Below the pieces are notes generated by a model. That model searched no databases and was not told where the DNA came from. It saw only the letters and a program-made list of their open reading frames with translations. Positions 4,787 through 52,000 of a stretch of DNA of 64,000 bases are shown here, piece after piece. Made by a program: the position numbers and the translations under genes. Each line of letters starts with the position of its first letter. Positions within the stretch are counted from its first letter, which is position 1. Origin of the DNA: Flectonema sp. DT1601 (lineage: Eukaryota); assembly GCA_964019425.1 (NCBI GenBank), contig OZ025793.1, positions 992,001-1,056,000 of the forward strand. The letters run 5' to 3'.

Positions 4787-5098
4787 CTTCTACACGCCCA
4801 GAAAAATAAAATTAGGATTCCTTTTGAATTTCGAAGCTCTTTATCACAATAATTATAATTAAACGTGGAATGCTTGTCTCAAAGAAAGATTCGAGGCTTG
4901 TTTAAAAAGCAATTTTTCAACAAACTTTTATAACAAAAAGTTTTTAACTTCTACACGCCCAGAAAAATAAAATTAGGATTCCCTTTGAATTTCGAAGCTC
5001 TTTACCACAATAATTATAATTAAACGTGGAATGCTTGTCTCAAAGAAAGATTCGAGGCTTGTTTAAAACGCAATTTTTCAACAAACTTTTATAACAAA
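4787..5098. repeat. Direct tandem duplication, 161-bp period, 2 copies
   Basis: CTTCTACACGCCCAGAAAAATAAAATTAGG... occurs at 4787 and 4948 with only a few substitutions. Confidence 0.95.
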
Positions 5099-18174: not shown

Positions 18175-20673
18175 ATGAATATCCCTCTGTTGGTAGTGTT
18201 ACCAGATGACAGTACTGTGGCTATTGCTGTTTGTGTTACTGACAGTGAGAAGGAAGTTATGGAAAAAGTTATTATCGAATCTGATACAACATTTGATACA
18301 TCAGTATGCGAGCTTCGTTATTTAGGAGAACTCATCGAACCTAACGTCACGCTATTGGAGTTGGGAATCTCTGCTGGAGAGGAACTCGAACTCCAACTAA
18401 CCGCAAAGGGGATTGCTCTGAAACAGCTTCAAAATAATAAAAAATGTTTCACGTGCCATTCTTTTCATAAAGAGATTGAATATTTTGGTGATGATGTAGT
18501 CACATACATTCAAGCTGGCGTTGATGTTAATGAAACAAACGAAGACGGAGAAACTTCATTTCACGTTGCTGCTGGAAATAGTAATATTCACGCACTAAAA
18601 CTCATTTACCCTCATGTAGATAATGCGAACACTATTGACAAGGATTATCAGAATGCCTTGCATCTCGCCACCTCTTGTCAAGCATCTGTAGAAACGCTCA
18701 CATACCTAATCGAGGAATGTAATATTGACATTAACGCTTTGGATCGTTGGGGTGATTCTCCAATGTGGTCAGCTTGTTCATTTCCAAGCAGACCGGAATC
18801 TTGCAAATTATTAATAAGACATGGAGTCGAACTTAACAGGAAAAACACCGACAAACAGCAACAAACTCCTCTCACAGCAGCCGTTGCTGGTGGCTGTATG
18901 GAAACCGTGAAACTTATTTTGGAAAACGGTGGAAGAATTCGTATGTATAATTAACATTATTAAAAAAAAAAATTCCCCTTTACGTACATTAACATAAAAC
19001 AAAACAAAAAAACAGAAGAAGGCAATGCTAAGTGGCCCAATGACATAATTGAAGCAATGACAGAGGGAGTCTCTTCCGAAATGTTCTCCCTGTTGTTAGA
19101 TTATTCTGATAATGTTGATGTCAACTTACCATCTAATTGCCGTGCGTCAAAATTCTTTAATGGTGGTTTGAGTTATTATGAACAAATAGTTCAAAGAGGG
19201 TTCAAATTATATCAAACAACCCTCAGTCAAATGTTAAAATGTGCCACTGGCGTTGGAGTTTTCAACTTCTTACTGGATCACTGCAGCCATGAAGAAAAGT
19301 TAAAACTCGATTTTTCAAAAGCGTTCATCTCAGCAACCCGTTCTAGCAGGATTGATGTTTGTACAGTTTTACTACGTCGGGCACGTGAATATCTTGAAAG
19401 CGGTTTAATAGAAAGTCGTTTGAGAAAAGTTTCTAACGTTCCGATGTTCAAGTATCTCTTAAACGAAGTCATAGCGGAAGAAAATCGGATTACTGGAACG
19501 CACAACACACATCTATCTGCATTGAGCTCACTGCAGAATGATAATAAAAGTACGACACACCTCACAGTGTTGTCAACCATAAATACTAAATCAATAGAAC
19601 AACTTGCAAGGGAAAGGTGTAAAGAATTCCCATACTTAAAATTACTTAGTGAGATTGATGATGAAATTAAAAAAAAAAAAATTGGTTTACTTCGAATATT
19701 AGCTGAATGCGAGAGGTCTAAAACATACGTCTCAATGCTTAGTGATACTGCTGAAAGTAGAAATAATGTGACTTTATTAAGAGATAGTAGCTTAACAAAT
19801 ACAGATCTGATTGGTGTCTTGTATGATAATCAGCTACGTTCCTCGTGTGAGTATATTATAAAAACAAGCTTGTTGGATAGTTGGCAATTTGAAGAACATT
19901 TCATCCCGTCAAAGGAGGACGTCCCTATTTCGTATATAAATATACTGAATAATGTGTATGTTGGGATTAAGCCACGACCCTATTCACATCAATTATTTTT
20001 AAACTATCTCTTGGAAGACGCAATCGTTGGGTTGGATATTTCTCTTATTATGATGCTACACTCACGGGGTGCGGTAACAAGTCATCGAGCACTTCGATTA
20101 GCGTGTAAGACTTCTGATGCAGTTGTTTTTGAACTTATTATGAATCTCACACACTTCCAAGAGATTCAAATAAATGAAATTATCGACGGAATGCACATCC
20201 TCGAAGCATGTATGATTTGTGATGTTTTTTCAGGTTTTATAGCATTGCTTGACATACCAGAAATACTAATAGAGCCTTCCTTACTACTAAAAGCGGTACA
20301 GCAAGGACGAGACTCTTACGTTGCCGTATTACTACGGAAGGGAGTCAGTGCGAAGCTACCAATAATTGGTTGGTTACCGCCGTTAATAATATCGTCGTTG
20401 TCGTTACACGCTAACGTGAGTAGGATTTTAATTGAGAATGGAGGGCTTTCTGTTGACGATCGTTTGTTCTGTCCTGGTAATGTATTCCACAATTACACTG
20501 CAGTGGAAGTTGGTTTTCATGTCGCAAAGCAGTTGCGGCGCAGTCGTGATCGTGCTGATCGCGCAAAATGCTCTGCAGCAATACGAGCTCTCAATGTACT
20601 GTGTTCACACAGTGCTGATCCACAACTGATTCTACGGAAGCTAACTACCCAGAAGTTGCGTGGCCGTTGGTAG
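18175..20673 (+). CDS. Ubiquitin-like domain + ankyrin-repeat protein (~807 aa, 2 exons)
   Basis: N-terminal UBL-like region (ELRYLGELIEPNVTLLELGISAGEELEL). Ankyrin motifs GETSFHVAA, QNALHLAT, GDSPMWSAC and QTPLTAAV. Intron 18941-19015 joins to the 19057 ORF in frame. Confidence 0.85.
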
Positions 20674-20954
20674 CTGTTATGATTTTTTTTTATTATTTTC
20701 TTGTTCTTGAAGTGCATTTTAAACACACACGTCCGTTGGCAACCTTATAGTACACTATTCGCAAGGCTCGCAAAACGACCATGCACATCTTAGTTTTTAT
20801 TTGACAACATGTCTTCGATACGATAAAATTGAGTTTTTTTTTTTTTTTTTTGCACCTAAACTAACCCCTGTTGCTAAAACTAAAGCGAGCGTTATATTGT
20901 GTCTTCATGTTCTCGTTCATTTACAGCAAGGAGGGGGGAACTTGGAAAAAAAAA

Positions 20955-22852
20955 ATGCAAAAAAGTAAAGAAAAATCCACCTTCTCAGAAGATATCACAA
21001 GAGACGAAATAAAAAGATTAAAAATCGAACAACCTGCAAAACAAAAAATAATATCATCGATCATAAACAAAATAAAATCAAAAGATGGCAGCATCCTACA
21101 AGACGATGAAGGAGGTTATTTCTGGACATCACACGTATTAAAAGACATTAACCTTTCAGAGTTACTTTCCGAAATAAAACCATACTGGTGTGATATGATA
21201 CCCCTACTAAGACACCATCCAATACTGACTGTTATTAATAAGTTCATCGCATCAGTGGATATTAAGGAAGCTAAAAAGGGTAATTGGGTTAAAAAAGAAA
21301 AGCAAAACAACGATGCAATCCAAAAAAGAGACAGTAAAATAGCTCAATCACTGGAAGCGATTATTCAAGAGACTCGGGATATGCTGAGGGATAGGAAAGG
21401 AAATATAGTGATTCCTATATATCCAGATTATTGTATTGTCGCTTTCAGTGGATTTATAGAAACGATTTCTGGACTTTTACGAAATGACTCTCTTGTTGAT
21501 ATATCGTCTCGTTACCAGGTTTGTCATAATTTTTTTTCCTCTTTTTTTTTTTTTTTCAAAAAAATTCAAAAAAAAAAAAAAAACACAGCTATATCACAAC
21601 GTCTTTGAATTAGTGAAAATCTTCTCTTCCAGCAACGACTTTGCTGCGTTATTCTGCACTGAAAGCGAAGACAATGGTAAGCCAATTGCCTCTCTTCTAG
21701 CTACAATGAATGAACAGGCTAATGTCTTTTTACATAAGAAAGATGTAGTTGAGGAACACGCAGGGGATGAAGATATGATTATAACAATTGACATAGCAAT
21801 GAGTATTAGGGATACCATTGAGAAGATAGCGAGGGACAATGAACAGATGAAGGAACGAATTGAAAATTTAGAGGAAAAATATATCGCGAGATTGACACCG
21901 AACAGACTGAAAATAGTAACAATATTCAACAGCAACACCAACAGATTCAATCATGTTTTTGACAGGCAACTTAAATCTGTTAGAGGTACTGTTAGTTCTG
22001 CTGTTGGACGAATGAGAGAACTGTCTACATTAACGACAACACTTCCAGTGAGTTGGGGGTCAGGGATATTCATCAGAGTTGATGAAAACAGAAACGACTG
22101 TCTCAAAGCTCTGATAATCGGACCTCAAGGAACACCTTACCAAGATGGTTGTTTTATATTTGATATTTTCCTACCACAAAATTATCCTCAAGTACCACCA
22201 ATGGTTGAACTTGTTACCACTAGTAAAGGAAATATTCGTTTTAATCCTAATCTCTATGCCTGTGGTAAGGTCTGCTTGAGTCTTCTTGGAACCTGGTCAG
22301 GACCTGGTTGGATACCTGGAAAGTCAACTCTGCTTCAGGTTTTGATATCTATACAGGTATGTTGTTTTTATTTGTGTTGTTTTTATTATTTTATTATCAT
22401 TATCAATACCGCAGGGGCTTATCTTCGTCAAAGATCCCATAAATAACGAACCCGGTGAAGACGGGTCCGAATCGAGAATTCAAAAATACAATAACTACAT
22501 TAGATACTACACATGCAAAGTATGTTTTTTGATCTTTTTTTTCTTCTAATTTTTTGTTTATTTTCCATCTCGTGGACTGTTGTAGACGAGACCATACACC
22601 CTTCCACAGGGAGCTGTGCTTGAGATTCTGAACTCTATAAATCCATACTTTGAAACTGTAATCAGAGATCATTTTAAGTTAAAGAAGGATACAATAAGAA
22701 AGAAGCTTACTGAACTTGTTGAGGTTGTGAGTCAGTTGAAAAGCACTCCGCCGGGGAACTTTGGATTCCGAAGTGGCAGCTATGGAGCTGGCGACTCAAC
22801 TAACCCAAAAGAAATAGTTAAACGAGCCTTAGCAAAACTTGAAGCATTGTGA
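20955..22852 (+). CDS. BIRC6/UBE2Z-type ubiquitin-conjugating enzyme E2 (~559 aa, 4 exons)
   Basis: Catalytic segment RFNPNLYACGKVCLSLLGTWSG, plus GPQGTPYQDGCFIFD and the BIRC6-like pre-UBC motif LLRNDSLVDIS..QLY. Introns 21519-21588, 22357-22414 and 22520-22609. Confidence 0.9.
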
Positions 22853-23640: not shown

Positions 23641-24207
23641 TTTTTTTTTTTTTTTTTTTTTTTGAACCTGTTGGTCTCTCCGGGTAATGTGGGTTAAAGG
23701 GATAGATCTTTCAAACCAAAAGCTATATAAAAACACAATGTCCGTGATTGAGTCTTTTACTTGCGGGTTACCCGCAGTCATCAGTTCGACTTGGTAACTA
23801 CTAAAAAAATTCAATTCGGTACCTTTTTTTAATATCCTAATTTAGTGCACAAACTCATATTCTAACTTCGTTTTTTTCTATTGTTCTTTCTTCAGCAGAT
23901 GTTTCGTGGCATTTTTTTTTTAAAAATTCCGCGGCTCCCTACCGACAACCCTTCGACAATACTGATATGGTATTGTATAGGGAAGTACAACATAGGACGC
24001 GCGAAAAAGTTGAAAAAAAAACCGTTGTGAGCTCTGACTGAATTTAGAAATAAACAGAGCGATGTTTATTATTTTCCCTATTCTTGCTTCTTACCTTCGT
24101 TCGAACGATAATTGTAATTATTTGTTTAAACATTATTGTTGTTATTTTGACTGACACGTGGAATGCTTATTATTTATTATTTCATTAAAGGAGTGGGTTT
24201 GTTCAAC

Positions 24208-27200
24208 ATGTCTAGAACTTACCCACAAAGGTGTACCCTGGACAAAGTTGTCGGGTTTTGGGATGGAGAGACAATCGGAGAAGCAGTCGGAGGGACGGAT
24301 GTCACTGTCCTCGGAGTTGAGACTTACTATCGAGTTGTGTACAAAGGAAAAACTGGTTTGATCCGGAAGAGTGATATAGCGGCAGGAGTCATCCAGCGAA
24401 AATCAACTCTCTCACTAGGCGATGAAGAATCGAAATTCTTGTACAATGAGAAGAGACAAGTCGAAGAAAAATTAGGAAATAAGTCTCTGCCATCACTACT
24501 ACCACCTGAATCTAGTAGAGTGTCGTACGACGAGGGTGAAAAGGAATTATTTAATAATGATCTGATCCTTATTGAGGAAAGTGTTAATTCTGGATTCCCA
24601 ATACCAGGAACTCTTGAATTAGGTCAATTGTCTTTGTTGTTAACGGGAGCAATCGTTAGACCAAATGGAATTAAAATGGCGATTGAGATTATAAAATGGG
24701 CCCTCCCACGACCAGAACTTGCCCGTCAACTTCCACCACTGCTATCTGATCTTCCAACTGAAGTAAGAGATTCTTTTAGAGATGAGGCTTCGTATTTACT
24801 AGCGAAGTCATATGACGAACAGAATGGGAACTGTGAAACATACATCTCACTTTTTAGAGCTGCGATAGGTCTCCCTCCAGGAATGACGGATAGCGACACT
24901 GATATCAATCTCAATAAGGAATCAAAATATCGACCTTACGGACATGTTGACTCTCTAAACGCTGACTTCCATCCGGATCCTGTCCTTGAAGAGGAAGTCG
25001 ACTACGTTAGAGGAGTCTTACGATCTGAGGATGTTATGGACAAGCTTCAGGTGAAGGATTACTTCAGCGACAGGTTGGCACAGAAATTAGCATCTCAGGC
25101 TGCAAGTGGTCGATTTGTATTCACAGAAAGCACTCGAAGAAATGTATCCATCCTCTGCAGGGCACTTCAATCCCCAATACCTCTTCTTATCGAAGGTGAT
25201 ACTGGAACGGGAAAAACAGTTTCAGTTTCTGTGGCGGCCGCCATGTTGGGAAAGACGCATTTACGATTTAATCTTTCATCTGGTACGACAGTCGAAGACT
25301 TGGTAGGACGCATGCAATTGAGCAACAAGAAACTTGAATTATCAATGCAGCCATTCACTGAAGCATATTCAAAAGGAATAATACTCGTACTCGATGAGTG
25401 TAATTTAGCACAAGAAGAAGTGTTAGCGACTCTCGAGTCAGCTTTAGATACGGGAATTCTAGTCATTCCTAACCCATCAAATCCAGCACGTGCTTCTAGA
25501 GAGGTTAAGAGACACCCAGCGTTTAGATTAATTATAACACAGAACCCATGTACAGGATTGTACAGAGGGAAGAGACACACGTTGTCAGCTGCATTCTTAT
25601 CTAGATTTTATCCCGTGTCGTTGAGTGACATCCCATCGTCTGAATTGGCTGAAATTGCAACCATCCAACTCGCGTCTAGACTCAAGTTGAAAGCAGCTAA
25701 GGATGATCCGGGGAATTCGTTCTGTCATCCAACAGGTTCAACCATTGTAAAGATACACGATGCAGTAAAGACATACGCGGCTACCCTCCGATCTGTAAAC
25801 TCTCTTAACATCTTATCAATTAGAGATGTCATAAACTTTGTTAGACTAGTAGCTGAAGAACCGAGTGATAACACTCCTGAAGTGATCCTCCAATCTGTAA
25901 AACAACGATTTCCAGAAGCAGCTTGGTGTCTATACCGAGCAAGGTTTCAACGAGAGGCAAGAGATGGAGTTTGGGAAGTAATCAAAGAAGCTGTTAAAGA
26001 CTTCATCCCAGATCTTCCGAGTGATCCGACGGTTAATGGAGTTGAGACTTTTCATATCGAAGAAGGTTCAAATGGTGAATCGATTCGTATGAAACTTGAA
26101 CTACCAAAAGTTGGTAAAAGAATTACCTGCATTGATGACAGGATAGCATTCCCACAACACCCAATTGTTGTTACTGAAAGGATTCTTAATCTCTGGAAAC
26201 AACTTGACTTTGTCATGGAGTTACGTAGACCCGTCTTGGTAGTTGGCTCTCCTGGATCTGGAACATCATCAGCCGTGTTGGGATACGCTGCGTACCGAAA
26301 ATCGAAATTCAGTCTTTGCCATGTCACGAGTGAGACATCAGCAGCAACTCTAGTTGGTCAGAACATGCCTTGTATCAATGGTAGTGAAGATAAAGTTATC
26401 GAATGGATTGATGGACCAGCAACATCTTCTATCGATAATGGTGAGTGGTTAATACTTAACGATCTACCTGCTGCTACAGCAACTGTTCTCGAGAGATTAA
26501 ACTCTCTGTTGGAAGAGGAACCAGAGTTGTACGTTGCTGAACGTGGAGCTGGTAAAGACAAAAAGATAGTTGGCAGCTCCTCTTTTAGAGTCCTTGCTAC
26601 TGCCGACACTACTCAGATTGCTTCTCTTTCTCCGGCTTTTGCGAATAGATTCACAATTCTTGTTTTCGAAGATCCAGACGATGATGTGAAACCGGAAATT
26701 AGTTGTTTGTTGAGAAGTTTGTTGTTCGCTGCGCCAGACTTGGTGTGGCTTCGGAGAGACGAGTCTTGTGTGGAAACCTTTCGAAATCAAATAAAACATT
26801 TCGGTAGCGAAGATTGTTACTCAAATGCGATAGCAGATCGTGAGATAATAGGAAACCAAACATTTATAATTCAGTGCTGGGGAGTAAACGGTGCGTGTGT
26901 TGGTGTTGCTATTGATGAGGATGACTTCTCACTGACACATGAACCACACAAGGCAAAGACTCGAATTTGGGGATACAGCAATCATGGTGAAATATTTTGC
27001 ACTGAACCCGACAAACCCCGCTCTGGAACAGAATGTAAGAAGTATGTAGACGGCGACACCATTTCAATAGTAGTTGACTGCGCTAAGGAGAGCATCACAT
27101 TCTCACTCAATGAGGAGGTTCAAAAGTGCATTCCGTTGACAAACGCGATCAATCAGAAAAAACCCCTGAGACCATTCATTGGACTGTTCACTAAAGGATC

Positions 27201-30200
27201 AACAGCAACGATAAGACTTTCTGGAAGTAAACAACCAACTGATGAAGAGGTTACTCAGGTTACAACTATGGCACTTCCGTTTTATCGAAACAGCGGACAG
27301 TCTGGTTTAGCCACAGTTGTGAGAGCATCACAGGTTGCTCGTAAGCTTGCAGATGACCAAGCTGTGATGTGTGAAAAGCATCACTTATTAAAAGCTTTTA
27401 ATATAACTCAGTTAGGAGGTCATAAGGGATCTTCTTGGTTTTCAAGAAGGGGCAGTGCGCAGCAAGTCTTGATGAGTTTCAGTCAGATTAGAGGAGGTCC
27501 AGCTCTGCGTGCAACGCTCGAACGGAAATCACAAGACATGCCACCTTCACTAGTTGGGATGACTCAAAGAGTCGTGTGGGGAATCTCTGTTGAAGTTCCT
27601 TTAGTCATTGTTGACGACTTTAGTTGGGATTATAGAACATGGATGCCTTCGAATTGTGAACATATCGTCGCGACACCAAATAGTTCGTTGTCGGAGTGGT
27701 TTGGGTCTCTGCTTCCAACAACAAGTCAATCAGGAGGAGTTCAGATAAAGGTAAACCCTGGACCTTTAAAAAGAGCTCTTGTTAATGGTAAAGTACTTCT
27801 ACTTGAGGGTCTTGGAGTTCTTCCAGCTTCAGTTCAATCTCAATTAGTACCTCTTCTTGAAACAGGAATGTTATGCAGACCTGGTGAAGGGGATGCGATA
27901 AGAGCTCAGCCCGGATTTTCTTTTACTGGGATCTGTACATCGAAGGAAGTTGAACGCTTGCCTAAGAAATTCCAGAGCAAACTAACAAAAATACATCTCC
28001 CTCGACCCAAAGCAGATGACTATAAATATTTAGTTGGTGACATCCCTGAGCCTTCTGCGACTATAATCGCAAAGGCTGCTGCTGCGATTGGAAGTGAAGG
28101 AATCAAAACATTTCAGATGAGTGTCAGAGTCTTTAAAAGAGTAATCCATCGAATGTCAGTTCTCAAGATAGCTGATGACACTAAAGTATCACCCCACCTA
28201 CTATGGGCATATTGTTACACATCTTACGTGTTATCTCCTTGTCAATTGCAAGAAGAAATTTGCATCCAACTGGCCAACTTCTTTCAATCTCACAAAGTAA
28301 TTGAGTCCAACGACTATTGGAATTTTGTTAAGTCATTGCGGCAACCTGCTTCCATCATGACTGACCAGAGCGATAATAACAAAGTTTTATTTACTTGTTG
28401 GAACCTTAAAGTAAGTGTGAAGGGATCCTTATCGAATTGTAATGTGAATATTTCACTTCAAAAATTAATAGATATAATCGTTTGCATTGCTCATGATGCT
28501 GCAAGTGGAGAAGCAACACTTCTGGTGGGTCCAACGTCTTGTAAGACATTAGCACTTCAAGTCTATTCATCAATCGTATCAAGTCAGATGGATGTTATTC
28601 ACTTGACTTGTTCTACTGATGAATCTGACCTCCTCGGTTCTGTCTCTCCGTACTGTCCTTCAGAGTACGCAAATGAGTTAAAAATGGAAATTGAAATGCT
28701 TCAAAATCGTCGAAAGAACGAACCCTCCTTACCAGACAACAGTTTCGAGTCTTGGGAAAACTCAATTAAATCTATGGAGGGAAACTTATCTGCCACAAAG
28801 GGAGATGAGGGAAGCACAATATTCGCTTTTAAGGAAGGACCTATGGCACTTGCAGTTAAGAAAGGTCTTGGTATGTTGTTAAAGGCAGCAAACTTACCAA
28901 ATGAATCAATATATGTGTCTCTTGCAGAGCTATTTGTTTCCAGAGAGCTTGGGTTTGGTGCTGCTGTGCAAACTGTTGTGCCGTTAGTGGAATCAGTTCC
29001 ATTGGTGCTCACAATTACTTCAGAAATTAGTCACAGTAGACCACCTACTCTGGATACACTTTGTGTTCATAGGCTATGCCCTGCTTACAGTACTTCTGAG
29101 ATTGGGATTATTCTGTCTGAAGCTGTGTCTGGTAAGCAGCCTGATGATGAATCAGAACTGCTGTCATCGACACTTCAGAACACTTGTTTTAGAATGTCAT
29201 TATCATTGAGATCAATGCTCAGATGGGCTCATTTTATTTTTGAGTATTCGAAGGTTGCAAACCTAACCAGACCGCAAGCATTTCTTCTTGGAGCTAAGCT
29301 TCTCCTCCAAGTTGCTGTACCAGATGATGAGAGTCTTCATAAAGAAGGATGGAGTTCTGATGATATTAAGAACGCCAAGTCAGTAATTCCTAATCAAATT
29401 CGTTCTAAAGGACTTCCTATCGAAAAGCTCGTCGATTTGAAAGAAGGGAATATTGCTTTACTGAAAGACGGTGAAGGCTCTTCCCTCGCAGTAGCTCGTT
29501 GCTATAAAGGAAAGGAATTAGAAAGTCGTCTTAAGATTTCTAAAATGGTTCCAACGGAATCACTTCTTCGTAACTTGTGCTGCGTATTCGCTGCCAGCAC
29601 ACTTCGAATTCCACTTCTACTTGAAGGGGCACCTGGGATAGGTAAAAGTTTTATAGTCCAATCAGCAGCTGAGTTGCTGTCGTGTAATTTTGAGAGAATT
29701 CAATTCTCAGCAGGCACTACCATAGCTCACTTGTTTGGAGTACCAATGCCAATTATGAAAAATGGAATCCGCAAGTTTGAGTCAAAACTCGGAGCCTTGG
29801 GAGCAGCTTTACGAAAAGGTGAAAACGAAAAGTTAGAAAGTTGGATTCTATTCGATGAACTCAATCTCGCACCTCCTGAAGTACAACAAGCATTATCACC
29901 AATGTTAACAGAAGGATCGACTACCTTAACAATTGGTAATGATATTTATGACTTGAGAAATGTTCGCTGCTTTGCTGCTGTCAATCCAGCAAAGGTCGGT
30001 GGAGGACGTTCTCACCTTCCACCGTCGGTCAGAGATTTATTCACCACAGTTGTACTGAAGGAACTTACAAGTGAAGAAGCCATCGAGATTATTGAACATA
30101 AATTAGTAGCTGACCTTGAATTAGGTTCTTTTGACACACTCCGTAATGAACTTCTTCAGGGAATCTCAACAGTTCATTATGGTGTTGCAGAAGCTCTTCG

Positions 30201-33200
30201 GAGTGGTGGTATTGGTGGTGACGGCAACACCCGCATCGTGAATCTCCGAACACTAGAAAAGGTAGTTCTGCTTCTCTCATCTAGGTTAGGGAAACATGCA
30301 TCCAAGTCACTCAAAGTCACTCCTGAAGGGAAGAAGATCGGTCATGTTAAACAATTCTTCATTCAGATAATGGATGCTGTCTACAAGTGGAGGTTTAGAG
30401 AAGCAGCTGATCGATCAAAGGTCGAAGAGATGATTGTATCATTAGCGAAGAGTATTCATGCTGTTTATTTACCATCACCTCATATTGCTGCTATGGGTTA
30501 TGGATCTGTTATTATGTTTGGTAGAGTTGGTATGATGAGAGGATACGCAGCCTCTAGTAGTAAACCACTTCCTCCTTCACCTGAATTACAATATCGAATA
30601 TCTGCCTTGGCTGCTGCATCTGTTTCTTCTCTCGCTGTCCTGCTTGAGGGTCCTACTGCTTCAGGTAAGACAGCTCTTGTGAGAGAACTCGCTCGAATCT
30701 GTGGACAAAAGCTGCAGATTATTCCTGTAACCCCAAATACTGAAATAGGAGAACTACTCGGAATGTGGGTTCCCTGGAAGGGTCTCGACACTGGCTCTGA
30801 CAGCATCGAAGCTCATTATCAACTCGGGCAGGAAGTTGCTCGTCTCGCAGCATTATTCATAACCAGCTCTTGTCACTCTTCCAGTGAGGAAGTAAAGGAG
30901 GTTCGAATAGAGCTGACAAAGCACCTCGAAATCCTCACTGATTTCAAGAAACGGGGAGTCGGGTTTGAAATCCTGAGGAAAAGTTCGTTGTTGCTTTGCA
31001 CACGGATGTCACAATTAGAGGAGAAAAGCGTCGCCGTTAAGGCGGAAAAACTAAAAGAGCTGCAAGGAGAGGTCGGGGATATGGGGTTCCACTTCGCTGA
31101 GTCACAACTAATTCATGCCATGCATGAAGGTGATTGGGTACTACTCGATAATATTGACTGGGCATCTCCTGCTGCTGTTGAGAGACTTAATTCCCTTCTT
31201 GAAGCTGACGCAACGTTCAAACTTACTGAACGTGGTGAAGGAGAACCTTTGCTTTTAAAGGGACGAGGCATTCATGAAAATTTCAGAATATTCTTCACGG
31301 CAAACCCAACTAGAAAACACGCCAGTACGTTGTCTACAGCTTTTTATAATCGAGTGATAACACTATCAATGAATCCCCTTGGACAAGAGTCAGAAGACGG
31401 TGGCTTCAAGAGAGTTGGAGCAGGGAGAGGTGACACTAGTATTCCAAGTATCATGTACCAAACCTTTAATCCACTTTGCGTAGATATAAGGTTTTGGCAA
31501 TATGTTGCCTCAGGATTTCACAACAGAGCCAGAGGTATAGAACCGAAAATATCGGTAAGAACATTACAGCAGTGTCTTGAAAAATGGAAAGTTGAAATTT
31601 CAACATCGGTAGAGCAATCTTCACTACAGCTGCTGTGCAGCATTCTGCTAAAGACGTATGTGAAGTCACTTCCTGTAGCAACTAGAGAGACTTTGATTAA
31701 GGCTATGAGACAAGTTCTGACTGAAGCTCAAGTGTTGTATTGGAATAAAAGGAAACGTGATTCCAGTCATCGCATTAAACCACCAAAACCTGAAGAGAAA
31801 CCTGAAGAAGCAGAACCAGAACAATCGTTTAGTTATAATGAAGATTCTATATTTCTTCCTGAAAAGGAAGAAGATTACGACAGCTCTACCGATGGCGGAG
31901 AAGGTGGTATCGTCGAAATCGATCGTGGGATGCCACAGCAATCTGAAGAACACATTGCAATCGCTGAAGATGTTGTGAAAATTCAAGAAGCATGCATCTC
32001 TCACTTAAAGTGTGAAACGTCTCGTCTGGAAACTTTATCTACAGAGGAATACGTTACTTTAGATGACAAAGAGGACCTCATAGACATCGCTCAAGATCTT
32101 GAAAGAATGTGGAAAGAAAAGCAATACGGCATTGTCGAAGAGCTCAGAGAGAACCTATCATTCCCAAGTCACATAAAAGACCCTTACACAGTATTGGATA
32201 CTCTTGCGAAGGCTCAGGAAGAAGCTCATGGAAAACACTTTCCAAGTCTTACCGCTATTCATTTGGTTGTACTTAGATTATACACCATGGAGTGGGCAGA
32301 TATTGATCAGCTTCTTGGTTATGAGAATGTCACTCCTTGGAGAGCAAATCTTTCAGAAGAAGATCAAGCAAAATGGTTACAATACAAAAAAGATTACCAC
32401 GGTACTCGCAATGTTAATATATATTCTAATATTAATACTGCTTTGAGAAACGCTCAGTCAAAAGATGAAAAGGAAAGATTTGATGCGAAGATGATGATGC
32501 AGAAATGGGTTAAATTCATCTGCATGATGATGACAATGTGCGAACCTATTGCGTCACCTGTACTGTTCAGAATGGTTAAGAGTCTACCAGCTACTGTTGT
32601 AAAGAATTTATCTGAACTACAAGTAGATGATATTCAAGCGTGGTCAGCTGCCTCTAGTACATCGATGATGGAAGGGTTCGCATTCCTAGGTAGCGATATC
32701 AATACAAATGCAACCTTTATCCTGAGAGGAGTGTCAAGAGGATTACGCGCTGATAGAATCTCACCATTCCCTGAAGAAGAAGAAGTCCTCGTTCCTCCAT
32801 TCGCAGTCTTTAAAGTGGTCAAGAAACCAGTTCATGGTCCCAAAGGATTAGTTGTAGAAATGCAGCTGGCAGAGTTACTTTGGTGGGATGACCCAACACT
32901 CAGATCTTTTGTTGAAAGAGTTCTTCATGATGGCCGTGATGGTGTTCGGAGACTGAACGCGAGAGTGAATAAGAAGTTTGGAGTAAGTGGTGATGTTCTG
33001 ACTCGACTAAGTCCTGAGTTGGTACTTCCAACAACTTGGTTTGAAGATTTACAGCGAGACTGTCAGATTCCTGAAAGTGATACCCCACCAGCAGCAACAG
33101 TCGAGTACTTATCAGATGGTGCTCTTGTTGAATGTTTGTCTGGTTTAATGAGTTCAGCTTCTTCTTCAGTTGGCAGCTACTACTCTAATCGAAAAGTCAA

Positions 33201-36200
33201 CAAACGAGCGTACACCGAACTCCCGATCTCTGCCCGCGAACTCTTCTCAAAGTGTCAGGATAATCTAACAGAGGCATTACGTAGCATGATGCAAAATAAT
33301 ATATTCACCAGATACCAGGCTGCTAGTTCTGGTGTAGAGCTTCACATCCCTGGTCTCATCAAAGCGATAACTACAAACTTCTCATACAATAAAGTCTTCG
33401 CTTCTCGAACTGCAGGCGGAACACGTTCATACAGTTGTATTATAGCAGTAGATGCAGCGACTGTTGGGGACCAAAAGATGGCATTTCGGTACTTGGAACT
33501 GTTTGCTGCATTACGAAATTCATTATCAGCCATTGAAGTAGAACCAGCTGTTGTTGTATTCAGTACAAGTAGTACTTGTTGTATTCATTTAGGTGAGTCA
33601 CCTTGGGATGACACTGCTACTTATGCATTCCTTAGTAGTTTATATAATTTGAATACCAGTCCTTCAGATGAGGATATGAATCCAATTCAACAATTATTAT
33701 CACTTGTTGTGGATATGAAAGGTAAGAAGAAATCATTATTTGTTATTACTTCTGGATTTGGTATTTCTTGGAGAAACCCTGAGATTGCTGGATCTCTCCG
33801 ACTAGCTGAGATGAACACAGTTGACGTGATTGGTGTTGGTATTGAAAGTGATATTCATTTTGCTCTCCCTCATGCTGTCTCTACTTCAAAACCATCAGAC
33901 CTAGCACGTGGACTTGAATTACTTATGCATGGTCCTTGGAAGGCTCCTCAAAGTGACATTGGTCGTGTTGAAGTTAGTGAGAAAGAAAATATTTGGGGAC
34001 GTTGGCACACTGGCTACACAATTGTTGGACATGATGTAGACTTCAACAGGGAAGATGATTCTTCAGGAGATTGCTTTATGATATTTTCAAAAGATGCAAT
34101 TACCAACGGAACTGAACAACACTTCACTATCACTACACCCTCCGACTACTATGTAGGTGTTGGTAGTATGGGTGTTCGTGTTGTCGATAACTTAGAAGGC
34201 AATCCATCAGCAGCTGTTAAGAAGTTCACATCCAGCGGATCTGTTTCTATAAAAGTAGATTTCAGTGATGGTAATCGACGTCTAGTCATCTCATCAGAAG
34301 TTATTGAAATACCTGTTAACCTAACTGAACCTTATTTAATGATTGGACTCACTGCATTCACTGGTAAGATTTCTATCACTAAGGCTGGACAAGAGAATGA
34401 GTCAGGAGAAGACATTCAGATTTCAAGTACTAAGAGTATCAGTTGGGATAGTAATAATCACTTTGATGTAGTTTCTGAAACAGTTGGTTCTTTTGATAAA
34501 TTTCTCAAAGATGACAACGAGAAACAATTGACATTATCATTTATATTGTCTGAGGATTGCACTCAGGCAATCTTTCGAATCTCTGGAGACAAAACTCTGT
34601 CAGTTGATGTTAGTGTTGGAAACGATAGAAGCAGTGCCGAATCTTCAATAATCGGAATTCATAAAACAGACTACGATGTTTGGATAGCCGACTACACGGA
34701 ACCAGTCTTAGATCGATTACGAATATCAACAAGTTCAGCAGCTGAAAGCCGCAGGAATGGCACACGCGCCACTCTAACTTTATCAAAAATTCGTTTGTCA
34801 CCTGATGGTGATGTGTCACCTGATGGTGATGTGTCACCTGGGCTTATAGAAGTTGAACTCATGAACGCTTCCAATGCCTTTAACTCCTCTTCAGGGTATC
34901 ACTTTTACAGTGACCAGAATAGTGTTGTAGAACAGAGGAAGAGCGGTAAATCCCAATGGAAACTTAAATACGATCCTTTCAGTGACTGTAGTTTGTCAAC
35001 AATATTCACGTTCACGATATCCGATGGAGACATTGAGAAGAAGATAATCCAGTTCACTTTATCTAATCGTGAGGAGGTCGTCTATAAAGCGGACGATAAG
35101 AAACTAGATGGTTCGAATATTACTATTCGTTGGGACTGTACAGGCACTCAACAAATACTTCAATTTATATTCGACGGAGCTATGTTTGAGTTCGAAGGTG
35201 ACAATCTGAAAATATGTCTTTCATCAGTTCCACTTGATAAGACAAAGGAAGAAGATTCTCTGTTTATTAGGAAAGTAAAATGGAAAGGTACTGAAAAGAA
35301 GGGATGGTCTAAAGTAGGTAGGGGATTATCTGTGGTAAACAGTACCGCAATTACCACTACAAAAAACAACTACTCAGCTGCACTTGGTCAGCCTATGTCA
35401 CCTGGATCAGGAATTCACGAGTGGAATGTACAGCTGTCGGGTAGCTGCAACGGAACATGTGTTGGGATTGCTACTGCGGAAGTCGATTTAGATTCACCTC
35501 TTTATAGAAAACAAACTACTTGGGTTTATAGTAATCATGGAAAAACTTCACACGGCGCTGACAGTGGAAGCAATAAGAATTATGCTAAAGAGTGTACGAT
35601 CACTTGTAGACTTGATATGACTGAAGGTTCTTTAACATTTCTTTTGGATGGAGTTGGTCAACCAAAAGCCTTTTATCAAATATCTGAAACAGTATTTCCT
35701 ATCATTGGATTGTATACGAAGGGATCTAATGCAAAGATAACGACTGTATCAGAAGGTGAAAAGACTGAGAAGACTATAAAATGGTCCGCGCCTGATGGCT
35801 CGCTAGTTGAACTCCTCGACGTATCTCCAGGTACAGTCTGTCAAAGCGATTTAAATTTGAGTCAAGACGCTTTTGTTTTATTTGTGAATTTCATAGGATC
35901 ACACACGATAACATTTTCAGACTGTCGTAAAGAATTTACAGAAACCGGAAAACACTATTCTCATAAAATAGTTTGCGATCCCTTGTATGTGTTTTTTTTT
36001 TTTTTTGTCTCTTTCGTTTTTATTGGGTTCTTTTTTTTATCTACCTTTCGTTTTTGTGGGACAATTGAAAATATAATTTAAATAAAAAAAAACCAAAAAA
36101 AAACAGAAAAAGTGTCTTTCTTATTAACGACAACATGACTAAGTTGCCGCCATGCACCACACTCGGATTTGAGTTTGTCGACGCTGGTTCATGTGAGGTT

Positions 36201-36701
36201 ACTCACGTAGAGAAGACGATTGGATTTTCTCACGTAGAATGGGTTAATAAGCTAAATCAACCAGCTCTCAGTCTTGATCCTTCCGTTGTTGAAGATGACT
36301 GGTTGTTTGGATACTCACAAGTGACTACAAAAGATTTTTCATTTCAGGTAAACTTTACTGGATTGACAAACGGTTGCTTAGTTGGATTTTGGAAGGGAAC
36401 CCCCGTAGAAGACATTGAAACAATACTATCTTCTGATACAAGTGTTTCTTATAGTAGTCATGGAATTCTTCGTAACCGAGGTGTGGAACCCAAAAGAGTT
36501 ACTCGATTTCCGAATGACGGTTGTCTAGTGACCATCAATGGAACTACTCAATCAGAAGGTAAAGTAATGATTGAATTCGTTATTAGTTCCGAAACTGGAA
36601 TTTCTCAAACAGTAAAGTGTTCCACTTCAATGGATGGCGACGACTATCTTATTGTTATGGCAAGAGAGCCTTCAACTTCATTTATGGTTCTAAACACTTG
36701 A
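24208..36701 (+). CDS. Giant midasin-like AAA+ ATPase with SPRY, ADP-ribosyltransferase and VWA domains (~4,123 aa, 2 exons)
   Basis: Walker A motifs GDTGTGKT (25195), GSPGSGTS (26245), GPTSCKT (28528), GAPGIGKS (29626) and GPTASGKT (30649), with dynein-related AAA_5 motifs such as LDECNLA and VLERLNSLLE. SPRY insert at ~26740-27220, ART R-S-E motifs at ~32560-32800, VWA at ~33420-33900, C-terminal SPRY-like repeats. Intron 35985-36106 joins to the 36135 ORF in frame. Confidence 0.9.
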
Positions 36702-43435: not shown

Positions 43436-46018
43436 ATGTCAATTTCGTTTAACGACTTAGAAATCCGAGTGACGGATCCAACAAAAAACGATGACCATAT
43501 TATATATAAGATTTCCATAAGAGGTATGATTTTCCCCCCCAGCTTTTAATAATTCAGTTATCTAACAAAACGAAAAAAAAAAAAAAAAATAAACAAAACA
43601 GACGAATCCAGAGGACTCGTACTTCATTCTGTATATCGCAGATTTCGTCAGTTTGAAGAAGTCTTCAAAGCGCTGAAGGCAAAGAACCTTCAACCACCAC
43701 TACCTGACTTACCACCAAAGAAAACATTCGGAAAGTTTGATGCGAAATTTTTAGAAACCAGACGTAAGATACTAGAACAGTATTTAGGAAGAATAAAAGA
43801 AAACAAGTACTTAGTCAGAACTGTGGAGTTTAGATGTTTAATCGGATACGACGAAATGGAACGAAGGTTATTAGAGCAGACTAGATCTAAAAAGAAGAAG
43901 AAGAATCTTCCAAAAAAGATTCGCGTAGATCCCTCAGCCCATCCTGGATACCCTGTGAGAGTTCCTCAGGATGAGGATCTGACTCACTTACAAAGATATC
44001 TTCGTAATGCGGAGTTTTCGTTAGTTAAGCCGCTACCAAATCTTAGCCCAAATCCAACGAAGTCCCACTTTCTTGTTAAAGGAGGCGAAGAAACATTTGT
44101 TATGTCTGTCGGCATTCGTCGAATCGTCGGCATGGAAATCGTATCAGAAAAACATCGCCGTCGTTTTTCATCTTTTGTAACAAGTCTTAACGATACTAGC
44201 AGTCCTTTTATTCACTCGGCTGTTAGCGCTGATTTCGACCTGAATGCTGGTCGATCCTTCGTAGTCCGATCCCGAGTAAAACACGGATCCTTGAGAGACT
44301 ACATCAGCAATAAAGCAGAATGGAGCGATAAGGCAGAGACCAAAGCTGGAAGAAAGAAGGCCCCAATCAAAGACTCAGAAATTGCTTATTTTGGAAAACA
44401 AATTCTAATCGCTGCGCAGACTTTTGAAGAGAGTGGTATTCCATGTCCGCAATTGACTATTGGTATGCTGATTTTATGTTTCAATCTTTTGAAAAAAAAA
44501 AAAAAAAAAAAAAGAATGTCTTATTGTTGGACACTAAAAATAAAATAATAAAAAAAACAGGAAACATTCTCGTCGGCTCCAAGCAACTCATTCAAATCAG
44601 TGATTGGGAAGACATACTACTCGGACTAACAAAGCTTCCTATGCTCCATATGCCTGGTGACCTAAGTGAGAGAACGTCACCGTATTTGCTACAGGCTGGT
44701 GTAGTTCTTTTAGAAATGGCAAGGGGCGAAGATGTTCCCATTCGACTCAGAAGAATGATGATGGCATGTCAAGGTGACCTATTCAACACAGAAGTTAGCA
44801 TAGAACCTGAAGAAGGTTTGTTTTTATCAAATACTAAACCTTTAGTTATAACGTATCCTCAAATCAATATACAGTCAGAAAAAAAAAAACAAAAACAGAG
44901 GAATCAGAATTGCGTTTCGCCTTCCCAGTCGACTTCACTAAGATGAAACTTCCAAAAGGATTAGCAGAAGTTTTAAAAACAATATTCGACCCTGAGCAGT
45001 GTGTTGCCTTTGAAGATATTCTCGCAATGCCATTCTTCAGAAGTGTTAAATTCAAGGTATGCGATGTTCTTTATTATTACAATTCAGTTCAAGCAGTTGA
45101 ACATTATCTGTCGTATAACAATTACCCCAACAGGAGCCGATTAAGATGGCTGCCGACACCATCCCTCGTGTGAGAGTAAAATCGAAGGACTTGGAAGCCG
45201 TGAGGGAAGCAGCTGATAATTGGCACGCTCGTCTCGTAAAGGAACAGGAAGGTGAAGATGATGAACCTAGCAGTCCAAAAGAAAAGAAGCCAAAGAAGGA
45301 AAAAAGGAGCAAGAAGGGGGCAGCTTCTCCAAGTGGTGGGCCTCCACCGCCTCCACCTGGCGGCCCGCCTGGTGCGCCACCCCCACCTGGTGTTCCTGGT
45401 GCTCCGCCTCCACCGGGTGGTCCACCTGGTGTACCGCCACCACCTGGTGGCGCTCCTCCGCCTCCTGGTGGTATGCCTCCACCGCCACCTGGCGGAATGC
45501 CGCCGCCACCACCAGGCGGAATGCCGCCACCGCCACCTGGAGGAATGCCACCTCCACCGCCTGGTGGTATGCCGCCACCTCCACCGGGTGGTCCTCCACC
45601 AGTTCCGGGTGGTGGTCCGCCACCGGTGCCAGGCGCCCCTGGAGGTGCTCCCCCACCACCTGGAGGTCCACCGCCAGTGCCTGGTGGTGCCCCTCCTCGT
45701 CCACCAGGTGGAGCTCCTCCTCCACCACCTGGCGGTGCTCCTCCTCCACCACCTGGAGGTCCACCACCAGCTCCTGGTGGCGCTCCTCCTCCACCGCCAG
45801 GTGGTGCTCCACCTCCACCGCCACCGCCACCCGGTGGAAAAATGCCAGCTGGAACTCCTGCACCACAGGTATGTTTTTAGTTAAAGAAGACAGACTAATG
45901 TCTAATAAGCATTACCATCTTTATCATACAATAAATCAACATAATAAAACAGGACGGTAGGGGTGCCCTGTTAGACGCAATTCGAAAGGGTAATCACTTG
46001 ACATACAAGGGAGGCTAA
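43436..46018 (+). CDS. PXK: PX-domain kinase-like protein: PX, pseudokinase, polyproline, WH2 (~720 aa, 6 exons)
   Basis: Introns 43524-43601, 44463-44560, 44816-44898, 45057-45133 and 45869-45952 all keep frame. PX (VYRRFRQF..LPPKKTFG..LETRRKILEQYL), kinase-like region (HGSLRDYI..FGKQIL) lacking HRD/DFG, GG(M/A)PPPPP repeats, and terminal WH2 GRGALLDAIRKG. This is the PXK/Slob architecture. Confidence 0.85.
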
Positions 46019-49010: not shown

Positions 49011-52000
49011 ATGTCTGCAACTGACTTCACAGCAACCATGGCGGAGATTCCGTCACACGGAGCTAGGTTGGGAGCTGCAGCGAAGATGGGTCTCGAAGGT
49101 TGCGTATTAACAGGCGTGGAGAATGAGGGTGCATTCACATCTACGTACGCAATTGTATGTCTAATGGCACGTAAGGACTCTGAAGGATTAGAAGCGGTTG
49201 TTCGAAAACATCGCTCCTGGGTTATCCAAGCGAGAGCTGTTCAATGCCTTTCAAAAATCGATCAAGCAAAAACAGCAAAACTTCTTATGGATCCTGACAT
49301 TCCAATTCAGATGCGCAGCGTTATTTTGAAATCTTTACGAGTCGGTAATGATGACGTCCTAAACTGTGTTCTGTCTAACAAGTCTTGGGGAGGTCTGAAG
49401 GCTGCCATTGAACTTATGCGACGATTCCCACGAGGTGATGTCTACGAGGAATTAATGAAAAAGTGGCTTCCAAAACTTGGAAGCATGAACCAACTTCTCG
49501 GAATTGAAATCGAGAAAAAATACGACGAAGAGTATCTGTACCAATCTGCAGCAGCAAAGTACCCGCAATTAATGCTAACTATGTTGAAGAATGAGAAAGG
49601 TGACATCAACTTTAGATGGTACCGTGCAAGTAAAGTTTTATCAAAGGAACACCCTGACGAAATGGTCAGCATTCTAAAAGAGAAATCATGGAATCCACGT
49701 GCTATTTGGTTTATTGCTCGTCCGCTTATCAAACACAGCCCTGATGCAGTTATAAATATTTTTAAAGAACGAAAGATTATCGATGATGGATTGTTTTGGT
49801 GTTTGAGAACAGTCTTTGACAACACCAACCATCGTCGAGAAATTCTAAACATTGTTTTAGATAATATCAAATTCGTACCTGCAGAGACCGGTGACAGAAT
49901 AATCAATCTCCTAACTGGTAAGTCAAAGAGAATGTACTCTCTCGATAACGAACTAACTGAACTGACCATTGCTAAACGCAATGCCGACTGGATCAGATTA
50001 CTCTCTGATCTCAGTGACAGCACTCCATACAAATTCACAACAGAGATATTCATCAGATGCTTACGAAAACATGTTATGGCAAAGCGTGAAACTTCAATCG
50101 GGAAGTTGTTGCGCAAATTAAATATTACAGAAACAGAGAGCAACTCCATATGGACAAACATTTATGAAGATGACGATACGACTGAAAAGCTCAGTGAGAT
50201 GATCAGAAAAAAGGGTCTCAATGAGGATGGATTGAGCTCTGATTTCTTTAAGTCGATACCGAAAACAGTTACTGATGAAGTGTTGCTCAGTTATTCAACG
50301 ACAGAAGAGTTTCTTGAGATGGAAATTAAAAATCGTTGCAATCTGTTGTCACAACTTCCCTACAAAATAGCTGCGAAAACATTTAAAGTTATTTCAAACG
50401 ATGCAACTCCTGAAAACAGAGTTATAGGGTTGAAGGCCATTTGGTCTGGTGTTACCAAACAAAAAGACGTCGACATTGAAGAGATAAGAGAAGTATTAAC
50501 TTATATTTATGACAGAATAAAAAGGGATCACGAAGAGATTACATCTCCCGTTATAAAAAAGATTCTACTCTCAACTCCTCATGAAATACTTTCACAACTG
50601 GTTGATGGGGATAAGCTACTCAACCTGTTCACTGTAAGTGTGGGGTTAGCACTTCCATTGGAAGACGGATGGACTGAATGGTGTGCAGCTGTTTGCGTTA
50701 GGGCTCCAGTTGTTTTTGAAGGAAACGACGTTGAAATTGAATATAATAGTTTCTTTCGATTAATCTTAAAAAGGATAAACACGGAGTTCCGTACTCTCGG
50801 CTCCACATGGCCTAAAAGTCTCATCACTGCACTGAAAGACTACCGAACAAAGTCTAAAAAAGGAGATTTCCAGCCTCACGATGCTGATCAACTTGCAACA
50901 GTAGTCAAAGAGATTGTAGACGCTTGTGATAGCGCGGGTATGTTTGGAGAATACACAAAGAGGACTAAAACTGAAGAAGGTAACACACGTATTCCATCGA
51001 CGCTTTCTGATGCCGGGTACACATCCGATGCTATGACGAAATCTGAGATACTGGAATGTTGGAACCATGTTCAAACGTTGAAGATTTTAAGATTTTACGG
51101 AGCAGACCTACTGATGATTTCCCCTCATGCCAAACAACATGCGACTACTTTTTTAAAGAAATTGGTATTCAAAAAGACGTCACCAGTCGCAGCAGCTCTT
51201 GTATTGAACATCGCTGAACTACCTGAAAAACGTTTACTGGCATGGCCTCAGTTTGCAGTGTTCGTAAAGAAGGCTCTCACAAGTCTACTGGATGTGTCTC
51301 AAGAGAGTTCTGTTGGATACCGATCAGTAGATGGAAGGCTTCTGGTTTCATCAATTATTAATAAACTTATTAAAGATCTTCCTATGGCTTCGAGAACTCA
51401 TTCTATGGTTTTGTTTAAAAATAACGTAAGCTCTGAACTTGCTTCTGAAATATCCAAATGGGCGATGCCTTACGAGTCACTTTGGGAGTTAAGTTGTGAC
51501 ATTTTATCGGGTTGTTGTGTCTCGTGGAAAGATGGAATCCCGTCATCATTTATTAAAGACAATCATTCAAAGGAAGGTGGGCGTGTTATGCTAAACGAAC
51601 ATGACAGAAGTCTCTTAGGTAACATTTACAGAAAAATCTGCCCTTCGACAAGGACACTGAGGGAAACAATATCTTGGAGGTCAGACAATGTTAGAGGACT
51701 CACTGCTGGGGCTATTGCTGCAAGTGCTAATTCCCAAGACATAGTTTCATTGTTGCGGCAGTTTTCGCGTCCTAAAAGTGCCGCCGAGGAATACGCACTC
51801 AATGAAGTGGTTAACGTGTTTTGCAGAAGTGAAGTTACACAAAGAGACACTCAGTCACTCGTTCACACATTACGCAACTTATTTGGGGTGGATGAGACTT
51901 TTGAGTGTCGCTCTGTAGGACGCGCGAAGAGAAACCGGTTCACACGGACACCTGCATCAAAGGCTCGGATTGTTCGCAAATCTGAGAAAAGATCAAAAAC

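Follow-up and report, generated by a model that had tools for sequence, protein, structure and literature searches.

Organisation of the locus

The window, 64,000 nucleotides of genomic DNA from Flectonema sp. DT1601, carries all its long open reading frames (ORFs) on the forward strand. A Pfam scan of 28 ORFs returned TBC, PX, ankyrin, E2, PPR and weak BILBO1_N matches, marking the DNA as eukaryotic, and Rfam returned 0 matches. The giant gene occupies an ORF of 3,972 codons (24163 to 36081, forward strand), and the encoded protein contains, in order, six midasin-type AAA modules, a short acidic linker, an ADP-ribosyltransferase (ART) domain, a vWA domain with a broken MIDAS and a SPRY domain, with an extra SPRY after AAA2 (Table 1). 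Its nearest relative, from Flectonema neradi, is 4,121 aa long and 62% identical across 99%.

The first ATG of the ORF lies at 24163; translation likely starts at Met16 (24208), because the alignment with the orthologue P0002 begins at 24214. Downstream, tblastn matched the P0002 C-terminus on both sides of a predicted intron, with P0002 residues 3940 to 4065 aligning to 36177–36530 (E = 1e-6). We infer an intron at 35985–36106, and the spliced protein would measure approximately 4,123 aa by arithmetic versus 4,121 aa for P0002.

A C-terminal membrane anchor was considered and rejected: the hydrophobic end of the ORF (35985–36081) is read-through into the predicted intron, and the gene runs on in exon 2. 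A simple hydropathy scan found no hydrophobic window above 2.0 in 6/6 relatives and, in the window ORF, one only at this read-through; by the same kind of scan no signal-like or hydrophobic N-terminus was found in the family. Pfam reported no delivery-domain family in the giant protein. On these three observations we also rejected a secreted toxin or a vertebrate ecto-ART type, and the soluble, cytosolic location proposed in the first-pass annotation is supported.

Two smaller features accompany these domains. A beta-rich N-terminal segment of approximately 50 aa (24241–24396) is shared with P0002 and P0043; it has an SH3-like look, for which Pfam gave no match. An exact 18-nt tandem duplication lies at 34796–34840, within the variable tail.

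Table 1. Predicted exons, intron and domains of the giant gene, in window coordinates.
Feature	Coordinates	Strand	Evidence
Exon 1	24208..35984	+	ORF list, translation, P0002 alignment
AAA1: Walker A GDTGTGKT, Walker B DE, sensor N, Arg finger; predicted live site	25105..25632	+	motif alignment
AAA2: Walker A without Lys, Walker B without Glu; Arg finger present	26200..26682	+	motif alignment
SPRY inserted after AAA2	26800..27252	+	Pfam SPRY, E = 2.2e-8
AAA3 and AAA4, degenerate: AAA3 without P-loop, AAA4 without acidic Walker B, no Arg fingers	27580..29082	+	alignment
AAA5: GAPGIGKS, Walker B DE, sensor N; predicted live site	29560..30057	+	motif alignment
AAA6: GPTASGKT, Walker B DN; Arg finger present	30580..31362	+	motif alignment
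Short acidic, poorly conserved linker, then helical segment common to the wider ART family	31750..32229	+	alignment
R-S-ExE (ARTC-clade) ADP-ribosyltransferase domain	32230..32877	+	Pfam, motifs, Atlas, PDB profile, Foldseek, alignment
Midasin-type vWA, degenerate MIDAS (DAATV in place of DxSxS)	33250..33942	+	phmmer, Foldseek
Variable tail, no recognised family	33970..35382	+	0 Pfam families; Atlas best 0.85, below recognition level
C-terminal SPRY	35416..35739	+	Pfam PF00622, aa 3752–3859, E = 2.7e-17 (whole protein)
Predicted intron, GTATG donor, in-phase AG acceptor 36106 or 36112	35985..36106	+	phase-compatible sites, tblastn
Exon 2, C-terminal ~197 aa	36107..36701	+	P0002 C-terminus match

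A midasin-type ring with two predicted live sites

The best PDB matches of the six-module ring were yeast Rea1 and Mdn1 (E = 3e-91). Motifs were counted in ten fusion members, some of which do not span every site. Walker A together with DE was preserved in 8/8 members at AAA1 and in 8/8 at AAA5 (two AAA5 modules have GKG). AAA6 retained Walker A in 8/8 and DN in 10/10, and the DN, as in module 6 of midasin, predicts ATP binding without hydrolysis. Every member spanning AAA2 to AAA4 was degenerate there, with no catalytic Glu in AAA2, no P-loop in AAA3 and no acidic Walker B in AAA4.

Arg fingers were present in AAA1, AAA2 and AAA6, and gone from AAA4, AAA5 and all AAA3 modules but one. In dynein, each Arg finger serves the preceding module, so that the neighbour supplies the finger. 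The pattern here fits this rule, since live AAA1 and AAA5 sites plus a binding AAA6 would need fingers in those places. The preserved Walker A and DE of AAA1 and AAA5, and Arg fingers confined to AAA1, AAA2 and AAA6, argue that the ring is maintained under selection.

The ART domain and its catalytic residues

The first-pass annotation had recognised an R-S-E clade mono-ADP-ribosyltransferase domain from its motifs. The Pfam ART family (PF01129) agreed, matching the whole protein above cut-off (E = 4.9e-5, 23.2 bits against 22.3) and the isolated domain with E = 6.5e-7. A profile made exclusively from the 141 non-AAA relatives hit the six-frame translation of the window at this site only (i-E 3.3e-68), and the triad pattern, drawn up after the motif was known, matched 0/20,000 protein shuffles. 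A chance motif was rejected on these results. The first Atlas matches were ART families (0.96–0.97), with a recognition value of 2092, under the 2300 mark. With phmmer against the PDB the lone domain gave one match, an unrelated one, and a four-sequence profile was needed; this four-domain profile retrieved 13 sequences at E ≤ 10, of which 12 were C3, 6dre/6drh, HopU1 or XopAI (best E = 0.007). We take the 6dre/6drh toxin to be Tre1.

The AlphaFold model of the domain was of modest confidence (mean pLDDT 59). Foldseek with this model matched Vis at E = 2.5e-8, and in a structure search of 48,161 chains the top 23 rows were ART-fold toxins or enzymes, with unrelated rows at Z ≤ 6.2. HopU1 was the first fold match of the predicted model (Z 12.2, rmsd 3.8, 194 residues). 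The ART-like fold that the first-pass annotation expected is thus returned by both searches, and the modelled domain almost certainly adopts it.

All the R, S-T-S and E-x-E motifs of that annotation were confirmed in frame. RLYT lies at 32275–32286 and IYSNINTALR at 32419–32448, while VLFRM carries Arg2803 at 32569. WSAASSTS spans 32641–32664, its SSTS 32653–32664 and S-T-S (residues 2832–2834) 32656–32664. The third motif, ISPFPEEEEVLVPP (32758–32799), includes EEEE at 32773–32784, in which only Glu-2872 (32776) and Glu-2874 (32782) are the conserved Glu residues; across the family alignment Glu-2873 varies (E/K/D), as does Glu-2871 (E/G/D and others).

Arg-2803, Ser-2832, Glu-2872 and Glu-2874 were invariant in 10/10 AAA+ART fusion genes, against a catalytic core merely 30–52% identical among members. 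Together with the fold matches, this upholds the R-S-E assignment with intact catalytic residues. In the wider ART family, 123/153 rows carried the full catalytic set (17 other, 9 gapped, 4 partial). A catalytic set fixed on so divergent a background makes it very likely, as far as sequence can tell, that the domain is catalytically active. According to the accessible part of PMC3102197, a Glu two residues ahead of the catalytic Glu (E-x-E) marks arginine specificity. Glu-2872 stands two residues before the catalytic Glu-2874 in 10/10 members, in agreement with the arginine-type signature read earlier, and on this signature the predicted acceptor is probably arginine.

vWA, SPRY and variable tails

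The vWA domain matched the Mdn1 MIDAS region in phmmer (E = 0.012) and human MDN1-MIDAS in Foldseek, the latter at E = 1.4e-6 on a low-confidence AlphaFold model (mean pLDDT 44). Its MIDAS is eroded across the family: DxSxS was found in 1/9 members and the distal Asp in 2/10, the two together in none.

The SPRY after AAA2 occurs only in the subclade P0001–P0004, other members lacking it. Tails differ among members, with SPRY in most and WD40 in P0043. Orthologue identity was 0.79–0.85 for AAA1, AAA2, AAA5 and AAA6, 0.60 for the ART and 0.38 for the tail, so that the ART and the tail diverge faster than the ring. Residues 2871–2944 of P0190 (Diplonema ambulator) weakly matched the axonemal dynein stalk/microtubule-binding region in four chains (E = 0.015–0.05), possibly indicating a midasin-type ring with a borrowed dynein part in this species. 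A similar dynein-stalk look of a D. papillatum tail gave no Pfam match.

A conserved diplonemid fusion family

Diplonemids are marine single-celled flagellates and among the ocean's most abundant protist groups. A family profile search of 1.84 billion representatives found 303 proteins at E ≤ 0.001, the best 150 of which were listed. Among 151 scanned proteins, at least nine (P0001–P0004 and P0043–P0047) carry AAA, ART and vWA in the same order, and P0192 is a tenth, incomplete AAA+ART protein. This gives at least ten AAA+ART fusion genes, the window gene included, of which nine also have the vWA. Their sources are the window, F. neradi (2), D. ambulator, Lacrimia lanifica, D. papillatum (2) and three ENA proteins; the D. 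papillatum members are KAJ9451414.1, deposited as 'Midasin', and the KAJ9463545.1/DIPPA_26858 cluster. Three members derive from transcriptome assemblies, which shows transcription of the family in the cells sampled. These sequences make the AAA+ART fusion a family conserved among diplonemids. The AAA-tethered ART of the first-pass annotation was correct; it had missed the midasin-paralogue ring, the midasin-type vWA after the ART and the family itself.

An unrooted tree of AAA5 and AAA6 (17 rows, long-branched P0037 left out, no euglenozoan canonical midasin included) placed eight fusion proteins in one group (100/100) adjoining two proteins from rotifers and one from another eukaryote, and separated this side from six canonical midasins (100/100). 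The same split was obtained with P0037 included. The AAA and ART trees shared the same three subgroups, the ART and the ring being co-inherited. Monophyly of the fusion-family ART had support 95 in a 153-row FastTree and appeared in 23% of bootstrap trees in a 14-row tree. A single fusion event is likely from these trees.

The non-diplonemid ring relatives (rotifers and one other eukaryote) correspond module for module to the window ring, and no ART domain was matched in them. Non-canonical six-AAA proteins outside the fusion family that match the ring in this way, some labelled 'Midasin', were P0005, P0006/P0024, P0007 and P0015/P0037 (rotifers, one EukProt entry and ENA); P0037/P0038 have two vWA domains at the end. 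The orthogroups of the D. papillatum genome paper (PMC10161547) comprise a universal one named 'Midasin' (DIPPA_20754) and several that are lineage-restricted, one of them OG0009141 (D. papillatum 2, Hpha 5, PhM-4 1, PhF-6 1).

ART-profile scans confirmed 0/594 metagenome and 0/446 viral stretches, and a full-protein scan yielded 13 loci, none with an ART or vWA match. A word-based search for longer ART fusions, of limited sensitivity, found 0 among 7,988 scored candidates of 481–2,000 aa, where the later profile search succeeded. DIPPA_26858, 10234, 08102, 10858 and 20754 were not among the listed entries of the P. papillatum proteomics supplement, as far as the accessible part goes (PMC12697944).

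The ART domain also occurs outside the ring fusions. Of the 141 non-AAA ART representatives, 92 were scanned with Pfam; the domain was joined to two myosin heads, one kinesin, PDZ, EF-hands, ankyrin, WD40, LRR, CAP, B-box and myosin TH1, and most scanned proteins had no further named domain. The joins to myosin heads and the kinesin motor are P0097, P0181 and P0114; in the two with myosin the first catalytic Arg is missing. A source look-up of four non-AAA members identified two as diplonemid (D. japonicum and Sulcionema specki). The wider ART family is likely a diplonemid expansion; Atlas clusters place ART families also in rotifers and haptophytes.

Comparison with known systems

Like midasin (Rea1/Mdn1), the giant protein has six tandem MoxR-clade AAA modules per chain, DN in module 6, an acidic region and a C-terminal midasin-type vWA. 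The use of the modules is nearly reversed, with AAA1 and AAA5 apparently live and AAA2–4 dead, whereas Rea1 uses AAA2–5. The giant protein also places an ART ahead of the vWA and SPRY or other tails behind it, which midasin does not. Rea1 is described in the accessible part of PMC11603028 as having full motifs in AAA2–5, a linker of ~1,700 aa, a D/E region of ~600 aa and a MIDAS domain docking on the ring. From the AAA6 Walker B to the vWA Asp we counted 768 aa, ART included, versus 2,494 and 2,791 in two midasins. A canonical midasin was rejected, on the separate clade, the missing ~1,700-aa linker, the broken MIDAS and the degenerate AAA2–4.

With R-S-ExE ARTs (HopU1, 6dre/6drh, XopAI, Vis, C2/iota/VIP2, SpvB and vertebrate ecto-ART2.2) the domain shares the fold (Z 9–12) and the R/STS/ExE triad, at only 11–20% identity. 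Unlike these, it is not secreted, injected or GPI-anchored; it is embedded in a host-encoded ATPase of 4,100 aa and has a family-specific LYTMEW helical segment.

RNF213 (mysterin), whose dynein-clade AAA ring consists mostly of dead modules, offers a works-like analogy as a giant AAA ring bearing a modifying enzyme. It is an E3 ligase without a vWA, whereas the giant protein has an ART and a vWA; RNF213 was absent from the ring's 12 PDB sequence matches, and Pfam found no RING/RZ family. RNF213 acts against cytosolic bacteria, according to the available text of PMC12440826. Prokaryotic MoxR-vWA ternary conflict systems likewise couple a MoxR-clade AAA and a vWA to effectors, but they are multi-gene systems with a single-module MoxR, in contrast to the single eukaryotic chain here, which combines six modules with an ART. 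Kaur et al. 2020 (PMC7159879) describe effectors gated by such MoxR-vWA pairs, with the MIDAS aspartates lacking from some of the vWA domains.

The union of a re-wired ring with an ART appears undescribed, the ring and ART families both being known. Open full-text literature, including the available portions of PMC7159879, PMC3482391, PMC3495828, PMC10161547, PMC11603028 and PMC3102197, contained no description of the AAA+ART fusion; subscription papers mostly fall outside this body, and a 2015 review of ART natural history could mention it. To our knowledge, the arginine-type ARTs known from eukaryotes are ecto-enzymes of vertebrates. A 2010 review, now dated, reports in its accessible part that no intracellular eukaryotic arginine-type ART had been characterised and that the type seemed absent from unicellular eukaryotes (PMC3102197).

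Proposed function and alternatives

We tentatively propose, from the sequence comparisons above, that the giant protein is a soluble midasin paralogue with a fused ART, which would act as an ATP-gated arginine-type mono-ADP-ribosyltransferase and intracellular defence effector. The SPRY/variable tail and the vWA would recognise a trigger or client, presumably without the Mg2+/UBL grip of Rea1 because the MIDAS is broken. The vWA-ART unit would hang from the short acidic tether, in the place of Rea1's long linker and D/E region, and ATP hydrolysis at AAA1 and AAA5 could shift this unit. With a target bound by the tail or vWA, ring turnover would expose or position the ART. Using NAD+, the ART could then ADP-ribosylate an arginine in a protein of the host or of the invader; the infection would be stopped or the cell killed.

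Gating of the ART by the ring seems rather more probable than the proposal as a whole, since a free soluble ART would be dangerous and the ART and vWA sit where the mobile MIDAS of Rea1 does. The AlphaFold models (mean pLDDT 59 and 44) are weak and uninformative on autoinhibition. For a defence role, given activity, the evidence is about evenly balanced. In its favour are the faster drift of the ART and tail than of the ring, the exchangeable recognition tails (SPRY, WD40, dynein-like), the patchy non-canonical ring clade (diplonemids, rotifers, one other eukaryote) whose other members gave no ART match, and the precedents of the MoxR-vWA conflict systems (PMC7159879) and RNF213 (PMC12440826) in the texts available. 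Diplonemids also harbour intracellular bacteria (PMC5845003, accessible part). Against it count the low copy number seen (two copies each in Flectonema and D. papillatum), the shared subgroups of the AAA and ART trees, by which the ART is not swapped, unlike polymorphic effectors, and the transcription of three members in the cells sampled. Sister ARTs on myosin, kinesin, PDZ, EF-hand and TH1 read as cell regulation, and Pfam found no ADP-ribosyl hydrolase or other defence gene among the 28 window ORFs. The first-pass suggestion of a regulated toxin or NAD-consuming effector therefore stays conjectural where its clade, residues, E-x-E and soluble location held: low copy number, ART-ring co-inheritance and the motor, PDZ and EF-hand sister fusions suit a regulatory enzyme almost equally.

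Such a regulatory enzyme, an active ring-positioned mono-ART modifying the cell's own (e.g., cytoskeletal or flagellar) proteins within a diplonemid arginine-ADP-ribosylation signalling system, is a close rival, somewhat less probable than defence. The fusions of the wider family to two myosin heads, one kinesin, PDZ, EF-hand, ankyrin and TH1 (92/141 scanned) favour it, although both myosin fusions may be dead, lacking the first Arg, and a named source exists for just two of the non-AAA members (four looked up). Likewise the D. ambulator tail points weakly to axonemal dynein, whereas the tails of the window subclade are SPRY and not dynein-like. Stable ART-ring co-inheritance and low copy number fit own-protein regulation, as does the fact that several R-S-ExE toxins modify actin (PMC3102197, in the part available); the fast drift of the catalytic core does not.

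Two further alternatives are improbable. One is ribosome-directed: the ring would dock on 60S or pre-60S like Rea1, and the ART would mark ribosomal or assembly proteins for quality control or translation shut-off. Midasins are indeed the nearest solved relatives of the ring and vWA, and the order ring, acidic region, vWA is retained, but the clade stands apart from the six canonical midasins (100/100), the AAA6-to-MIDAS distance is 768 aa versus 2,494 and 2,791, and no member has a complete MIDAS. Moreover, AAA2–4 are degenerate here, yet active in Rea1 (PMC11603028, available text), and D. papillatum also has a universal-orthogroup 'Midasin' gene (PMC10161547, available text). The other, about equally improbable, is that the ART chiefly hydrolyses NAD+ or modifies a non-protein acceptor, draining NAD+ once activated. 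NADase activity or DNA modification is described for some R-S-E enzymes (PMC3102197, PMC3482391); those cited in PMC3102197, however, have Q-x-E, whereas the fusion family has E-x-E in 10/10. A dead ART fold serving as a structural or NAD-binding spacer, which the partly degenerate ring and MIDAS and an ART core among the least conserved domains might suggest, is very improbable given four catalytic positions invariant in 10/10 over a 30–52% identical background and the full set in 123/153 family rows.

A soluble arginine-type ART hard-wired to a dynein/midasin-class ring would gate ADP-ribosylation in a novel manner and put the midasin scaffold to a new use. The genetically tractable model D. 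papillatum, with two members, makes this directly testable. At its most speculative, and in our view unlikely, diplonemids would have turned midasin into an immune machine resembling RNF213, with arginine ADP-ribosylation in the place of ubiquitin. Swappable SPRY, WD40 or microtubule-binding tails would sense the target, and a ring with two ATP sites would unlock the toxin-type ART. This machine would head a cytosolic system of hundreds of modular enzymes, alongside an unrecognised second midasin-like clade (diplonemids, rotifers and others) with lineage-specific cargo.

Other features of the window

Just upstream of the giant gene, a multi-exon gene at 20871–22852 encodes an E2 ubiquitin-conjugating domain with a large-E2 look, and ankyrin-like genes (18175–20673) lie ahead of it. 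Two long ORFs follow downstream, one of 1,760 aa (49011–54293) with no Pfam family and one of 1,127 aa (55506–58889) with a weak SH3_3 match. Tandem arrays occupy 1–1615 (unit of ~314–334 nt, 5 copies) and 4787–5098 (161 nt, 2 copies). Pro/Gly-rich tandem repeats with periods of 24–48 nt, at 45146–45880, resemble an actin-nucleator poly-proline region.
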